The translations under genes and the position numbers were made by a program. From a virus (Duplodnaviria; Heunggongvirae; Uroviricota; Caudoviricetes), in IMG/VR virus record IMGVR_UViG_2529292873_000017: DNA of 13,542 nt; one strand, 5' to 3'. The notes under the pieces are model-generated. The model saw nothing but the letters and a program-made list of their open reading frames with translations. It was not told the origin of the DNA and ran no database searches. Position 1 is the first letter of the stretch. Each line of letters opens with the position of its first letter. This document shows positions 3,957-11,970 of this stretch, piece after piece.

Positions 3957-4148
3957 TTAAAGACCTGCCGGGATTTCGTTATTATCCTGGTGAATAACTT
4001 TATCGACAGGGTAACAGTTACCGGGAATTTTCTGTTCGGTTGCTGCAGTCACACACTCCTGCATTGTCCTGTGAACACTGACTGCAATATCAACTGGCTC
4101 TCCGGAAACAAGAAAAACTGTCAGAACAAGTGCAAATGCTGTATTCAT
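3957..4148 (-). CDS. ydfD: YdfD-like small membrane lysis protein, 63 aa
   Basis: Start ATG overlaps the dicB stop (ATGA). Hydrophobic N-terminus MNTAFALVLTVFLVSG. Size and position after dicB match YdfD of the Qin prophage. Confidence 0.75.
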   Translation of the reverse strand: MNTAFALVLTVFLVSGEPVDIAVSVHRTMQECVTAATEQKIPGNCYPVDKVIHQDNNEIPAGL

Positions 4149-4333
4149 TGCCAGCATCCTTTTTGTATCGGACGTAAACGGGCCAGCATTGAAAGAATGC
4201 ATATTTTATTTAATAACTCCCGTTCGTGTTTTCTCTTGTTAATGGCATCTTCAGTAAATACAGGGTTACTGATAGTGACACCAATTTCAAAACAACCTTC
4301 AGACGTATTAACGTTTGGTAATAACGTTTCCAT
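4145..4333 (-). CDS. dicB: Cell-division inhibitor DicB (MinC-activating), 62 aa
   Basis: Protein METLLPNVNTSEGCFEIGVTISNPVFTEDAINKRKHERELLNKICILSMLARLRPIQKGCWQ is near-identical to E. coli DicB as I recall it. AGGA lies 9 nt upstream of the ATG; dicF is upstream and ydfD downstream. Confidence 0.85.
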   Translation of the reverse strand: METLLPNVNTSEGCFEIGVTISNPVFTEDAINKRKHERELLNKICILSMLARLRPIQKGCWQ

Positions 4334-4506
4334 TATCGCGTCCTCAACAATGAATTTTGTGATGCAGTGCCTGGTGCCTCCAGGTGACGTTAACCAGTTA
4401 ACAATTAACGCCGGATACAGAGAATCCACCCATAACACTGTTTTTGGTTTAACTGTTCCGCGTGCGCTTAGCCGCATTCACCGCATCACAAAATTCACTT
4501 TAAAAA

Positions 4507-4560
4507 GGGCGGCAGAGCAGTTCACGGAGTAAAACTGATACCGCCAAACGTCACCAGAAA
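4507..4560 (-). ncRNA. dicF: DicF small regulatory RNA (Hfq-dependent, targets ftsZ mRNA)
   Basis: Minus-strand sequence TTTCTGGTGACGTTTGGCGGTATCAGTTTTACTCCGTGAACTGCTCTGCCGCCC followed by TTTTT matches my recollection of the 53-nt DicF, with a possible 1-nt difference. Lies directly upstream of dicB. Confidence 0.85.
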
Positions 4561-4892
4561 ATTGATAACAGAGGGCGTTGCAGCGGGGTTGTCACTTAAG
4601 CGTATGGTCAACCTGACAACCCGGTGTCCTCAACGGGGAAGGAATAACCCCGCCATACTTACCGCCGCGCCATTTCGCGGATTGCCACAACCGGAAGCGC
4701 ACGGTCGAATTAAATTTAACGACAGGCTATCTATGAACCAGCAACTTCGCCGTGCGCTTTCGCGTTATGCCTGACTTTTCAGGGAAATATCCTTTCAGTA
4801 AACTGTCAGTGCCGGATGTTCACCCGTGTCCGGCGCACGCACTCCACTTCACCCGTGGAGAACTCCTTAATTACCAACCCTCAGGAGGGTGA

Positions 4893-5126
4893 ATGTTAAA
4901 ATCAACTCTTATTGCTAAATGCCTTTATCAAAATCGCATGGTAAGCAGCATTTCAATAGGCGAGTCTGCAGTTAAAAGTATTTTCGAAGAGTACTTTCCC
5001 GGGCATGATTTTAATAAATGGAATACCAAATTACCGCCAGCAGTTTCAACGCGTATTCTGAAAGCAACCGAAAGAGCAAGTACAATTCGCGTTAACTATT
5101 TCATTAAAGATTTGTGGGATCTTTGA
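4893..5126 (+). CDS. Hypothetical 77-aa protein, convergent with and overlapping the 3' end of the 135-aa minus-strand ORF
   Basis: ATG preceded by AGGAGGG with a 3-4 nt spacer. AT-rich. No motif recognised. It sits on the opposite strand to the surrounding operon. Confidence 0.4.
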   Translation: MLKSTLIAKCLYQNRMVSSISIGESAVKSIFEEYFPGHDFNKWNTKLPPAVSTRILKATERASTIRVNYFIKDLWDL

Positions 5127-5511
5127 TATCCACAGAGCCTAAAGTATGTGCATATGGATGTGCTATTATGCGCCCTCGCAGATTTGCATCATTTTCTAAA
5201 TTCACTGAACGAAACAGGGCATCAACAAGGCTCTGTACAATGCAAAGGCAATCGAAGACTGTCGCCGTTTCTGTTTTGATTGATGAAAGAACATGGCCAT
5301 TCACGCAAACAGAAATTACCCGTTTATTAACATCGCTTTCCTGCTTTTGATTATCAGAACCATATAGCCCAGAAAAAGCATTGCGCACATTACGAACCAT
5401 ATTATCGATGGTTTCTTTTTCTGCGGTACTAAGGTCAAGAGTAGCCAGTTGTGAACGAACTATATTCGATGCCATTTCCTGTAATGGCGTTGGTAAATCT
5501 TTAAATTCCAT
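5104..5511 (-). CDS. Hypothetical 135-aa protein (AT-rich insertion within the dicB-type operon)
   Basis: ATG with GAGG 7 nt upstream, 22 nt after the stop of the upstream gene. Lower GC than flanking phage genes. No recognisable catalytic motif, signal peptide or TM segment. Confidence 0.6.
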   Translation of the reverse strand: MEFKDLPTPLQEMASNIVRSQLATLDLSTAEKETIDNMVRNVRNAFSGLYGSDNQKQESDVNKRVISVCVNGHVLSSIKTETATVFDCLCIVQSLVDALFRSVNLENDANLRGRIIAHPYAHTLGSVDIKDPTNL

Positions 5512-5533
5512 TATTAGCCTCGTTGGTTAGCTA

Positions 5534-5752
5534 TTAACGTGGGTATGTAATCATTCTGGCAATGCTTAATGCCGCTGCTTTTTCCAGATTGGTGATATCC
5601 TGCTCCAGAGCGGACAGATTTTCAGCCTGCTTAGCCCTGGCTTCATTGGCCCATTTCAGGTCCTGCACCGCCTTAATTTTCTGGTGCATCCACTCATAAA
5701 GTTCATCATCGGTATAGTCTGGCGCGATGATGACGGGGTCTCGTTTCTGCAT
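5534..5752 (-). CDS. Hypothetical 72-aa protein at the ydfC position of the dicB-type operon
   Basis: AGGAG 5 nt upstream of the ATG. Predicted coiled-coil-like C-terminal half. Size and position match ydfC, but I cannot confirm the sequence from memory. Confidence 0.6.
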   Translation of the reverse strand: MQKRDPVIIAPDYTDDELYEWMHQKIKAVQDLKWANEARAKQAENLSALEQDITNLEKAAALSIARMITYPR

Positions 5753-7096: not shown

Positions 7097-7631
7097 ACAG
7101 GTTTGTGAGGCTCTGGATACCTGGGTATGCCGACCAGGAATGACACAGGAGCAGGCGACGATATTAATCACGGAAGCATTCTGGGCTCTGAAAGAACGCC
7201 CGAACATCGATGTTCAACGCGTCACGTTTAATGATGGCGAGGTTGATCAACGGGCGCTGGGCGTTAACCGGGTGAAGATATTCGAACGCTGGAAAGCTAT
7301 CGACACCAGAGATAAGCGTGACAAATTCACGGCGCTGATTCCGGCAATTATGGAGGCTATCCGGATCAGCGATTTCAGATTGTATTGTGAAATTACTGAC
7401 GGAAAAAGCATTACGTACATGATCGCCGGGTTAAACAAAGAATATGGCGATGTGGTGGAGTCCGGGCTGCTTTTTGCGGATCCAGTTGTTGTGGAACGTG
7501 AGACTGACGAGCTTATAGAAAAAGCTATTGCTTTCAAGCACGCGTATCGTCAGCAATACCAATATTACTTTGCAGATAAACAAATGTCTGCCAGGGGGTC
7601 GTATGAGTATCGATGCACTACGATGGGCTAA
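7080..7631 (+). CDS. ydaT: YdaT-family protein (proposed CII functional analogue), 183 aa
   Basis: Immediately follows and overlaps the Cro-like gene, as ydaS-ydaT in Rac-type prophages. The assignment is from gene order, not a confirmed sequence match. Confidence 0.6.
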   Translation: MKITTEQVCEALDTWVCRPGMTQEQATILITEAFWALKERPNIDVQRVTFNDGEVDQRALGVNRVKIFERWKAIDTRDKRDKFTALIPAIMEAIRISDFRLYCEITDGKSITYMIAGLNKEYGDVVESGLLFADPVVVERETDELIEKAIAFKHAYRQQYQYYFADKQMSARGSYEYRCTTMG

Positions 7632-8184
7632 AAAGGTGAAAACCGGCAGTTCATCCAGTAAGTCAGTATTGACCTGGCTTGCTGATATGTGCGGTGCCGA
7701 TTTGTGTGCATACCCGTCTGTATCTGCACTGGCAGAAGTAACGGAACTGAACAAAAAGACTGTGCAGGACAGCTTACGACACCTGATGGAGATTGGGTTA
7801 ATTGTTGATACCGGTGAGAGAAAAGGCAGAACAAAGCAAATTGTGGTGTACCGACTTATCGGTGTAGAAGAAAGTGTTGCCGAGCCTGAATACACCCAAA
7901 AACGGGAGTCTTTAAAGGTGGGTACAATTGGTGCTGTTAATAAAAACAGTACCGAAAATGGTTATGTTTCAGCACAAAACAGACCCAAAAACAGAACTCT
8001 TAGCTGCATGGAAAATAACCAAAGACACCCAAATTTTCCATCAAAGACACCCAAAAACGGATCACGGAACCCAAAGGAACCCAAAGAATTAAACCCCACA
8101 CATAACGCGCGCGAGAGTGCTCCGACCAGTGAGCAGGAAGTTTTGTCGTTACAGGCAGCCCCCCTGTATTCCTGTATGGCCTGA
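7603..8184 (+). CDS. Replication initiator (O-like, N-terminal winged-helix) with low-complexity linker encoded by iteron-like repeats, 193 aa
   Basis: ATG at 7603 preceded by AGGGGG. N-terminus MSIDALRWAKKVKTG... looks HTH-like. Phased ACCCAAA repeats lie inside the coding sequence. Confidence 0.65.
   Translation: MSIDALRWAKKVKTGSSSSKSVLTWLADMCGADLCAYPSVSALAEVTELNKKTVQDSLRHLMEIGLIVDTGERKGRTKQIVVYRLIGVEESVAEPEYTQKRESLKVGTIGAVNKNSTENGYVSAQNRPKNRTLSCMENNQRHPNFPSKTPKNGSRNPKEPKELNPTHNARESAPTSEQEVLSLQAAPLYSCMA
7980..8090. repeat. Iteron-like direct repeats (candidate replication origin) inside the initiator gene
   Basis: ACCCAAA cores at 7983, 8027, 8049, 8069 and 8079, spaced 44, 22, 20 and 10 bp apart. 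AAAGACACCCAAA occurs twice and GGAACCCAAAG/GAACCCAAAG is tandem. The flank at ~7931-7980 is AT-rich. Confidence 0.5.
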
Positions 8185-8207
8185 GCGAACCCATCGGAAA
8201 ATTCCCG

Positions 8208-9092
8208 ATGAGCGATAGCTGGTATCCGTCACGGGATTTTCGACGACGGGCTGCGTTGTGGGGGATGGCTTTGCCGGAGACAGAATTTACACCTGCTGAA
8301 CTTGCCGCCTTCCGGGACTACTGGGCAGCGGAGGGGAAAGTGTTTACGCAGGTTCAGTGGGAGCAGAAATTTGCCCGTCACGTGCAGCACGTCAGGGCAC
8401 AGGTAAAACCAGTCAGCAAGGGGGTAAGCCATGCAGCACCAGGTGGCACCGCATCACGGGCAGTTCAGGAAATCCGGGCTGCACGTGAACAGTGGGAACG
8501 TGAAAACGGATTTATCAGCAACGGAAACGGCCTGGAAGCTGTGGGAACTTATGGGGGAGGTGTATTCGAACCGCTGGATCAGAAGAACGGGGCTGCGCCG
8601 TCGAAGCTCTGGATTGCTCAGATTGGCGCGATGACTGAACAGCAAATCCGGCAGGTCTGCCGTCAGTGCATGGACCGCTGCCGGGCGGGTGAAACGTGGC
8701 CTCCGGACCTGGCTGAGTTTGTGGCGTTGATTTCGGAGAGCGGGGCAAATCCATTTGGCCTGACGGTGGATGCCGTGATGGAGGAGTACCGTCGCTGGAG
8801 GAATGAATCCTGGCGGTACGACGGGAGTGATAAATACCCGTGGCCACAGCCGGTGCTGTACCACATTTGCCTCGAGATGCGTTCAAAGGGGATTGAGCGC
8901 CAGATGACCGAAGGGGAGTTAAAACGGCTTGCAGAACGGCAACTGACGAAATGGGCAAAGCATGTTGGTAACGGCCTGAGTGTTCCGCCAGTCCGGCGAC
9001 AACTGGCAGCACCCAAACGCCCGCCAGGGCCAACGCCAATTGAGTTGCTGAAACAGGAATATGAGCGCCGGAAGGCGGCCGGTTTTGTCTGA
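8208..9092 (+). CDS. DnaT-like (primosomal protein I domain) replication protein, 294 aa
   Basis: Segment DFRRRAALWGMALPETEFTPAELAAFRDYWAAEGKVFTQVQWEQKFARHV resembles the C-terminal region of E. coli DnaT as I recall it. Confidence 0.65.
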   Translation: MSDSWYPSRDFRRRAALWGMALPETEFTPAELAAFRDYWAAEGKVFTQVQWEQKFARHVQHVRAQVKPVSKGVSHAAPGGTASRAVQEIRAAREQWERENGFISNGNGLEAVGTYGGGVFEPLDQKNGAAPSKLWIAQIGAMTEQQIRQVCRQCMDRCRAGETWPPDLAEFVALISESGANPFGLTVDAVMEEYRRWRNESWRYDGSDKYPWPQPVLYHICLEMRSKGIERQMTEGELKRLAERQLTKWAKHVGNGLSVPPVRRQLAAPKRPPGPTPIELLKQEYERRKAAGFV

Positions 9093-10302: not shown

Positions 10303-10529
10303 CGCGAGTGCGTGTAACTTTTGATGTCATTCCCGTAGAAACACCGGACAAATTTTCGCTGACAGGTCATGCAGAAGGTATAAATCTGCAGATTATGGAC
10401 AATTACGGATATCCGGCAAGAGCCGGAAAAAGCATGCCGCCTCTAATTCTCAGTGGAAGATGGACTTGATTATACTCATTGCATTGTCAGAAATAGTTAT
10501 CCATTAAAGGCTGGCTATTCCAAACAGGA

Positions 10530-10555
10530 TGTTGATTACAAAAATGTAATCAACA
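10530..10555. repeat. Perfect 11-bp-arm inverted repeat TGTTGATTACA-aaaa-TGTAATCAACA upstream of the binding-protein gene
   Basis: Read directly from the sequence. It lies in the AT-rich region ~165 bp upstream of the ATG at 10721. Confidence 0.6.
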
Positions 10556-10720
10556 TGTAAGGTTTATACTCTTCAATATGCGTATAATTTTCCTTATTTT
10601 GTTGACTTTAAATAACAAGCTATGCACGAGGTAAAGTCGGATAAGTTTATCTGGATGTAATATATATTATTTGTAGTGTTTATAACTTTATTTCATGATA
10701 ACCAATAAAAGGAGTTTTTT

Positions 10721-11479
10721 ATGAGGAACATAATGGCAGGTTTTTTAATATTCCTGTCTTCTGCTGCTTATGCTGATATCAATCTGTATGGTCCTGGTGG
10801 CCCGCATACAGCCTTGCTTGATGCAGCCAAACTTTATGCCGAAAAAACAGGTATTATAGTGAACGTTCATTACGGCCCACAGAACAAATGGAATGAAGAT
10901 GCCAAAAAAAATGCAGATATCTTGTTTGGCGCATCAGAACAATCTGCTCTGGCTATCATTCGGGACCATAAAGACAGCTTCAGTGAAAAAGATATTCAGC
11001 CTCTTTATCTGCGAAAAAGTATTTTACTGGTAAAGAAAGGTAATCCTAAAAATATCCGGAGTATTGACGACCTGACCAGACCTGGGATTGGCGTAATTGT
11101 TAATGATGGTGGTGGTACCAGTAATACATCAGGCACTGGCGTCTGGGAAGATATTGCCGGACGTAAAGGGAATATAGAAACTGTCGCCGCAATCCGAAAA
11201 AATATTATTTTATATGCGCCCAATAGCGGAACTGCACGTAAGGCTCTTGAGAATCAGCCTGGAGCAGATGTCTGGATAACCTGGGCTGACTGGGCAGCCA
11301 GTAATCCAGAAATTGGTGATGTCGTGGAAATAGCGCCAGACTACGTGATATGGCGTGATATGAACATTACAGTACGTCAGGATGCAAATGATGAAACCCG
11401 TCGATTTGCAGAATGGCTACAAACCGATGAAGCGGCGCCTGCATTCAAAAAATATGGCTGGACCAGGAAAGGCACTTGA
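10721..11479 (+). CDS. Orphan periplasmic substrate-binding protein, ModA/oxyanion-binding-like, 252 aa with signal peptide
   Basis: SD AAAAGGAG 6 nt upstream of the ATG. N-terminal signal peptide MRNIMAGFLIFLSSAAYA. Loose resemblance to ModA, including the C-terminal AAPAFKKYGW versus ModA AAEIFKRYGF. AT-rich; no permease or ATPase gene adjacent. Confidence 0.65.
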   Translation: MRNIMAGFLIFLSSAAYADINLYGPGGPHTALLDAAKLYAEKTGIIVNVHYGPQNKWNEDAKKNADILFGASEQSALAIIRDHKDSFSEKDIQPLYLRKSILLVKKGNPKNIRSIDDLTRPGIGVIVNDGGGTSNTSGTGVWEDIAGRKGNIETVAAIRKNIILYAPNSGTARKALENQPGADVWITWADWAASNPEIGDVVEIAPDYVIWRDMNITVRQDANDETRRFAEWLQTDEAAPAFKKYGWTRKGT

Positions 11480-11622: not shown

Positions 11623-11814
11623 GCGAAAACGGTTTGCTGTAACGGCAGAGTTAAGTAGGATTGCTGCGGGTGCTTGAGGCTATCTGCCTCGGGCATGAAC
11701 ACCAACGGCAGATAGATAAAAGCCCCACCCGACTATAAATCGAAGTGAGGCCCCTATATGCTCGTCACATATAGATTGCCTCTTACGGACCGAAAGGTCA
11801 AGGAGAAGCAGGCT

Positions 11815-11970
11815 ATGAAGCAGCAAAAGGCGATGTTAATCGCCCTGATCGTCATCTGTTTAACCGTCATAGTGACGGCACTGGTAACGAGGAAAGACCT
11901 CTGCGAGGTACGAATCCGAACCGGCCAGACGGAGGTCGCTGTCTTCACAGCTTACGAACCTGAGGAGTAA
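11815..11970 (+). CDS. hokD: Hok/Gef-family type I toxin (HokD/RelF-like), 51 aa
   Basis: Protein MKQQKAMLIALIVICLTVIVTALVTRKDLCEVRIRTGQTEVAVFTAYEPEE matches Hok-family toxins and my recollection of HokD/RelF. AAGGAG 9 nt upstream. An in-frame upstream ATG at 11758 would add 19 residues. Confidence 0.8.
   Translation: MKQQKAMLIALIVICLTVIVTALVTRKDLCEVRIRTGQTEVAVFTAYEPEE

Follow-up and report, generated by a model that had tools for sequence, protein, structure and literature searches.

The early-left (dicBF-type) operon of lambdoid prophages has a polymorphic cassette slot, and the 634 bp at positions 4880-5513 of the window (the whole stretch of DNA analysed, 13,542 nucleotides) are one of its alleles. 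The segment holds two convergent genes, here called A and B, which form an accessory cassette of the lambdoid immunity/early region and are kept as a pair in temperate phages of many gut bacteria. On the evidence of sequence comparison, both genes are real, conserved as proteins across genera and under purifying selection. Their products are already known, in that both are in the databases as 'hypothetical' proteins and that of gene A, ECs1762, has a single published biochemical observation attached to it. In the literature, which was also searched by accession number, we found no account of A and B as a pair or of how that pair is conserved, nor of the modular make-up of B or the polymorphism of the cassette.

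Boundaries and content of the cassette

The window corresponds to the left arm of a lambdoid prophage that belongs to the ompW-integrated type, with the order integrase, excisionase, exonuclease, DUF1482, dicB, DicF, ydfC, cI-like repressor and cro. It matches the PPompW prophages found in STEC as well as Sp9 of O157:H7 Sakai. The features of the slot and its flanks are:

4507-4559, minus strand: DicF sRNA (Rfam RF00039, 73.7 bits against a gathering score of 48), flanking the slot and outside the insert
4561-4879, minus strand: ydfC-dicF spacer, the DicF precursor, conserved and with a counterpart in K-12
4776-4804, plus strand: weak sigma-70 candidate promoter for gene A, TTTTCA-17-TAAACT, 8 of 12 matches
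4811-4834: hairpin in the spacer, GCCGGA..TCCGGC
4842-4860: hairpin in the spacer, CTCCAC..GTGGAG
4880-5513: the 634-bp cassette, missing from K-12 Qin and from phage Tritos
4883-4889, plus strand: Shine-Dalgarno sequence of gene A, AGGAGGG
4893-5126, plus strand: gene A, 77 aa (ECs1762 of Sakai Sp9; WP_000920491.1; phrog_10348)
5104-5126: 3' overlap of genes A and B, 23 nt
5104-5334, minus strand: B-domain of gene B, aa 60-135 (~75 aa), stop codon at 5104-5106; phrog_23433 matches aa 55-128
5104-5511, minus strand: gene B, 135 aa (ECs1763; WP_000394552.1; phrog_1363)
5362-5511, minus strand: N-domain of gene B, aa 1-50 (MEFKDLP...GLY), a predicted helical hairpin
5519-5522, minus strand: Shine-Dalgarno sequence of gene B, GAGG, 8-11 nt upstream of the ATG
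5534-5752, minus strand: ydfC, 72 aa (RefSeq annotation YdfC), the immediate upstream neighbour of gene B
5557-5574, plus strand: weak terminator-like hairpin inside ydfC, one found against 1.7 expected by chance

An earlier note on this DNA had described a 135-aa minus-strand ORF with a good Shine-Dalgarno sequence and a 77-aa plus-strand ORF behind AGGAGGG, with 3' ends overlapping by 23 nt, and all of these were found as described. It had also given the interval as ~970 bp without a K-12 counterpart. This was correct for 4880-5513 but not for 4561-4879, the one third of the interval that is K-12 spacer. By blastn, window 4043-4879 (~96% identical to K-12) and 5514-5752 directly adjoin in K-12 Qin, so the true extra DNA is 4880-5513. 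The insert is AT-rich, as had been claimed, with a GC content of 0.391 compared with 0.530 for the spacer (4561-4879) and 0.482 for the whole window. Its edge on the dicF side lies 13 nt before the ATG of gene A, and its edge on the ydfC side lies at the ATG of gene B. The GAGG that precedes gene B sits in the conserved flank, where K-12 has AAAG and Tritos has GAAG. A transposon-like insertion was ruled out, as the K-12 junction has no flanking direct repeats, which points to module exchange or deletion rather than transposition.

The window has the same operon and the same flanks as the dicBF operon of Qin (ydfABC-dicF-dicB-ydfD), with DicF and ydfC ~95-96% identical to those of K-12, but K-12 lacks the cassette between ydfC and the DicF precursor. 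Among 5426 complete E. coli genomes, 646 (~12%) contained the insert at a coverage of at least 80%, usually as one copy per genome, and the copies were mostly at least 99% identical.

Conservation of genes A and B across phages

The gene A product and ECs1762 of prophage Sp9 (O157:H7 Sakai) are identical. A word-indexed search returned 33 homologues with 55-72% identity, nearly all of exactly 77 aa, in Klebsiella, Salmonella, Serratia, Yersinia, Dickeya, Morganella and Xenorhabdus. An exhaustive profile search extended the family to ~163 cluster representatives at 50% identity, almost all of them stand-alone proteins of 74-80 aa, and none of the 163 carried a Pfam family. Single distant relatives of A used as queries retrieved no viral contigs. 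The invariant residues are distributed over the whole protein and the 77-aa length is kept. AlphaFold2 (AF2) modelled A as five helices with high confidence (pLDDT 96.7), and the predicted model had no match among PDB folds. Outside the overlap, pN/pS was ~0.36 for gene A and ~0.49 for the B-domain, values to be read with synonymous sites near saturation. Gene A of the window is basic (pI 9.5) compared with a family median pI of 5.8, and therefore RNA binding, discussed below, may be lineage-specific rather than a property of the whole family.

The gene B product, identical to ECs1763 of Sakai Sp9, is built from two parts, as PHROG matches divide it at residue ~55-63. The C-terminal part, the B-domain, has the conserved motif VNG..L...T..A.AADY......AL....LE.EAN.SGKTI.H. 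The AF2 model of gene B was of low confidence (pLDDT 45), too poor for a fold search; in it the B-domain appears as a beta-hairpin followed by a long helix. With the B-domain alone as query, only close E. coli proteins were returned. Two loci show this domain joined to other N-terminal segments. A 156-aa B-domain protein (locus L092, 3212-3682, minus strand) has an N-terminal ClpX-type C4 zinc ribbon (zf-C4_ClpX, PF06689, 34.1 bits against a gathering score of 27), which Pfam did not find in gene B of the window. On a viral contig (L099, 3212-3793, minus strand), a YdfC-like coiled-coil segment, 35% identical to the window YdfC (E=1e-9), is fused N-terminally to the B-domain. As YdfC is the immediate upstream neighbour of gene B in the window, this fusion provides a functional link between YdfC and gene B.

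The convergent pair itself, proposed in the earlier note, proved to be real, with A and B conserved together and with the same overlap. In Klebsiella and Serratia prophages a 77-79-aa protein that consists of the B-domain alone is convergent to A, again with a 23-nt overlap. The convergent A and B-domain were also found in Proteus, in diverse viral contigs and in metagenome contigs, where A is only ~40% identical, and the 23-nt length of the overlap is retained in nearly every locus that bears the pair. Searching from the B side, an A-family gene was present at 73 of 80 viral B-domain loci. The remaining seven comprised five copies of a 201-aa E. coli variant and two contig ends. The flanks of the pair vary by locus (RdgC, YfdP or DicB, with several repressor types), and such differences in mosaic genomes argue that A and B move as a unit. 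Their coupling is not obligate, as the 201-aa variant keeps the B-domain without A and some distant relatives of A lack B.

Cassette types and transcription of the slot

The earlier note had suggested comparing related prophages to see whether the ydfC-dicF interval is a variable cargo slot. It is, with at least six cassette types in E. coli, each consisting of the shared ~50-aa N-domain, a variable C-terminus and a different convergent small antisense gene. Besides the 135-aa product of gene B, the N-domain recurs on proteins of 122, 124, 129, 133/137, 201 and 208/212 aa, whose C-termini are mutually unrelated. The sense/antisense lengths of the six types (in aa) are 135/77, 201/63, 133/64-76, 208/69, 124/73 and 122/100. 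The antisense gene abuts or overlaps its sense gene in all six, and in five of the six types the antisense gene, as called, begins 5-8 nt after a strong GGAGG that sits at the junction with the conserved spacer. In the 201-aa type, where the B-domain is kept with a C-terminal extension, an unrelated 63-aa antisense gene replaces A, and is preceded by the same Shine-Dalgarno sequence and junction (CTCAGGAGGGTGAA) as gene A. In the 133-aa type (L015, 3862-4190, minus strand), the shared Shine-Dalgarno sequence and junction (CTCAGGAGGGTGAA) are followed by a 27-aa ORF (MDKKQIEALQSIIEKQDEAIRILFISH), and the called 64-76-aa antisense gene begins downstream of this ORF in a different frame; these could be two small ORFs or one frameshifted gene. 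The five antisense genes other than A each have their own PHROG of unknown function, distinct from phrog_10348. A constant flank with a variable sense C-terminus and a co-varying antisense gene suggests cognate pairs.

In related dicBF-type prophages, PaaA2/ParE or HigB-type toxin-antitoxin (TA) pairs lie between the repressor and ydfA (L012, 2194-2672; L123, 692-1173; L122, 507-1171). The early-left region collects TA modules.

Gene B is read in the sense of the early-left (dicBF) operon and gene A against it. The plus strand of the spacer (4561-4879) is the sole upstream/5'-UTR region available to gene A, and contains the weak candidate promoter at 4776-4804; a stricter promoter scan of the plus strand over 4426-4892 found none. 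Upstream of A in the non-E. coli loci we found a conserved extended -10-like element, TTTTCA(CC)-N17/18-TGgTATCTT, which lies partly within a hairpin whose stem differs in sequence between genera while its pairing is kept. The E. coli spacer can be aligned in part to this promoter region of the other genera, and its -10 is degenerate. Three Klebsiella/Serratia loci have a TTGAC-type promoter upstream of B, just past the terminator of the repressor gene; B is the first gene after it (the pL position) and A points toward it. Between pL and B, loci L005, L007 and L008 (~4450-4540, minus strand) share a conserved leader (TCATCAACAGCG.A.AGGCAG.ACG), which is common to Serratia and Klebsiella phages with different repressors and may be a regulatory RNA element, nut-like or of another kind. 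As there is no terminator before the weak candidate at 5557-5574, a transcript of A would be antisense to all of B.

Klebsiella and Serratia prophages have, downstream of the pair, DicF-like hairpins (GGCGG..CCGCCCUUUUU) that could be divergent relatives of DicF. They scored below the gathering score (29.9 bits in Klebsiella, L008, 3874-3922, minus strand; 21.7 bits in L007, 3709-3791, minus strand), and Rfam found no DicF-like RNA beside the pair in 11 other loci. On these sub-threshold hits and the 11 loci, the idea that gene A always travels with a DicF-like sRNA was rejected.

RNA association, known systems and the possible role of the pair

ECs1763 is in use as an EHEC-associated PCR marker, and was formerly listed as EHEC-specific. 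For ECs1762, one report describes native protein in uninduced Sakai in MEM-HEPES that was significantly enriched by TRAPP, the UV-crosslinked RNA-bound proteome (Zammit et al., NAR 2025, PMC7618764). In the same report, tagged ECs1762 carried crosslinked RNA in a PNK assay with a signal above the sfGFP background, the authors state that it has no detectable RNA-binding domain, and RhsFI, another RNA-associated TRAPP hit alongside it, is an immunity protein. The available part of the report makes no mention of toxicity on overexpression of ECs1762 from pBAD24. On these data, ECs1762 is among the very few experimentally supported RNA-binding proteins without a recognisable RNA-binding domain. 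The presence of the native protein in uninduced EHEC Sakai shows that the plus-strand gene A is expressed in the lysogen, in line with the convergent pair of the earlier note, which had been made to depend on plus-strand transcription. As ECs1762 has already been published as an RNA-binding protein (PMC7618764), the likeliest mechanism shifts toward RNA.

Searches of Pfam, NCBIfam, PADLOC and PHROGs assigned A, B, YdfC, the other sense proteins and the antisense partners only to PHROGs of unknown function. No PADLOC-DB defence model matched A, B, YdfC or the 118-aa neighbour, and single and profile searches of A and B against PDB sequences returned nothing. The statement that neither protein shows a recognised motif is therefore upheld, in that neither belongs to a characterised family in Pfam, NCBIfam, PADLOC or PDB sequences, nor A to one among PDB folds. 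Like the genes of type II toxin-antitoxin systems, A and B are small, closely linked and carried by a mobile element. They differ in being convergent with overlapping 3' ends rather than in one co-transcribed operon, and neither has a match above threshold to a type II family in Pfam, NCBIfam or PADLOC. The description of the pair as an inhibitor or as toxin/antitoxin-like in the earlier note is a guess.

A similarity of architecture was seen with polymorphic toxin/immunity systems (Rhs, CDI and colicin-type, including RhsFint-RhsFI), which also combine a constant N-terminus with a variable C-terminal part and an adjacent small gene that co-varies. ECs1762 and RhsFI of EHEC are in addition both RNA-associated (PMC7618764). 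The cassettes differ from these systems in the very small size of their proteins, in having the partner gene on the opposite strand and in their location, a phage early operon. Pfam found no toxin domain and no trafficking or secretion domain on the sense cassette proteins. Although six E. coli types have this toxin/immunity-like architecture, their shared N-domain could equally be a recombination flank.

Among RNA-binding proteins, A shares with Hfq, ProQ/FinO, CsrA and Rop its small size and its crosslinking to RNA in vivo. It has no sequence or fold similarity to Hfq/Sm, FinO/ProQ, CsrA, Rop, KH, S1 or cold-shock domains. Inspection of the alignments showed that the arginine-rich motif of N/Nun is absent from A (MLKSTLIAKCL...) and from the short forms of B (MKKQGRIVTV...). 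Lambda rexAB, P22/lambda sieB, HK022 nun and BTP1 bstA are lysogen-expressed genes of the lambdoid immunity/early-left region. Like these, A is a small accessory gene near the repressor and pL that is expressed while the prophage is uninduced, its locus varies between related phages, and like HK022 Nun it contacts RNA. Unlike them, it is read against the early operon and has a convergent partner gene, and it resembles none of them in sequence or fold. A gene with a placement analogous to that of gene A was seen in Sakai Sp10 (L125, 13157-13768, plus strand), where the 'superinfection exclusion protein' ECs_1937 sits between kil and the repressor and opposes the early-left operon.

What could such a pair do? 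The reading we prefer, and hold tentatively, is that A and B are a cognate pair active in opposite phases, with an RNA-contacting A in the lysogen, a partner or antagonist B from the early operon and a switch by convergent transcription between them. While the early promoter is off under repressor, A would be made from its own promoter and act on RNA, most plausibly on early-operon transcripts, either leaky ones from the prophage that carries it or those of a related phage that superinfects. Its role would then be regulatory or one of exclusion, on the side of the lysogen. Once the early promoter fires, B would be produced, and early transcription running antisense through A would lower A by RNA polymerase collision and by sense/antisense pairing. 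B would bind or otherwise counteract A, allowing the phage's own lytic programme to proceed. The N-domain, which is specific to E. coli, and, in other phages, the ClpX-type zinc ribbon or the YdfC-like coiled coil would probably be interchangeable oligomerisation or recruitment modules for the B-domain.

Several results favour this cognate pair. The 23-nt convergent overlap persists despite differing flanks and repressor types, 73 of the 80 viral B-domain loci carry an A-family gene, and six E. coli types pair a variable sense C-terminus with an antisense gene of their own. Both genes have pN/pS below 0.5 and the A model is confident (pLDDT 96.7), while the zf-C4_ClpX and YdfC-like fusions to the B-domain are consistent with the modular part of the proposal. 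The conserved promoter-like element of A in non-E. coli loci and the TTGAC-type promoter of B in the Klebsiella/Serratia loci also speak for it, as do the expression of ECs1762 in uninduced Sakai and its crosslinking to RNA (PMC7618764). Against the proposal, the B model is of low confidence (pLDDT 45), the A promoter is degenerate in E. coli, with only a weak candidate there, and the family median pI of 5.8 suggests that RNA binding is perhaps not general. The 201-aa variant has replaced A, distant relatives of A occur without B, and linkage by descent alone would also preserve the pair.

A more doubtful explanation is a polymorphic effector/immunity (toxin-antitoxin-like) cassette, in which the variable C-terminus would be an effector directed against the host or a competing phage, the antisense gene would encode a neutraliser made constitutively in the lysogen, and both would have been diversified by conflict. 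This would account for the conserved N-domain, variable C-terminus and co-varying small gene of the six E. coli types, for the assignment of each antisense gene to a separate PHROG of unknown function, and for the invariant polar residues of the B-domain (D, E, E, N, K/R, T and H). The occurrence of PaaA2/ParE and HigB TA pairs in the same region of related prophages is consistent with it, as is the RNA association of RhsFI, an immunity protein, in the same TRAPP study as ECs1762 (PMC7618764). However, searches of Pfam, NCBIfam and PADLOC gave no match to a model of a toxin, an antitoxin or a defence protein, A and B are convergent rather than in an operon, the 201-aa variant keeps its B-domain without A, and the common N-domain may be a mere recombination flank.

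It is unlikely that the ydfC-dicF slot houses an undescribed phage-borne polymorphic two-component conflict system, with a common N-terminal adaptor, swappable C-terminal effectors and matched antisense 'immunity' expressed in the lysogen, A and B acting via a new RNA-binding fold. If so, lysogens would neutralise, in a type-specific way, the early programme of related phages that superinfect them. Should the cassettes serve in conflict between phages or between phage and host, the slot would become a new source of defence and counter-defence functions as well as of a new RNA-binding fold.

We consider it improbable that A and B are two unrelated accessory genes (morons), adjacent by descent and overlapping through genome compaction with no functional coupling. 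Relatives of A do occur without B, and B without A, and, within the overlap, B has a variable tail that resembles a passive reverse reading of the conserved C-terminus of A (FIKDLW). Yet the pair and its 23-nt overlap persist down to ~40% identity in A and ~35% in B in mosaic phages, and across different flanking genes and immunity types.

Least probable of all is a role at the RNA level with the proteins secondary, in which plus-strand transcription would insulate the toxic dicF and dicB against leaky read-through from the early operon, or down-tune it, through colliding polymerases or through duplex cleavage by RNase III. The cassette does lie upstream of both dicF and dicB inside the long DicF precursor, with no terminator after A before the weak candidate at 5557-5574 and a DicF-like hairpin downstream of the Klebsiella pair (29.9 bits, below the gathering score), but both proteins are under purifying selection, A folds confidently in AF2, DicF-like RNAs are not detectable beside the pair in most other genera, and K-12-type prophages manage without the cassette.

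Three further regions of the window drew attention. An Rfam match to the sok antitoxin at 11668-11817 (plus strand, 103.9 bits against a gathering score of 59) overlaps a 70-aa ORF at 11758-11970 (plus strand), and has the appearance of a type I TA locus of the hok/sok type in the right arm of the prophage. At 7528-9092 (plus strand), ORFs of 218 aa and then 294 aa, with an unusually high GC of 0.57-0.60 around 8100-9000, have a layout unlike the DnaT-like and P replication genes of strain 2014C-3061 and Sakai Sp9, and may be a different replication module. Finally, a strong AT-rich trough (GC 0.31-0.37) spans 10350-10950, just before a 252-aa ORF at 10721-11479 (plus strand).
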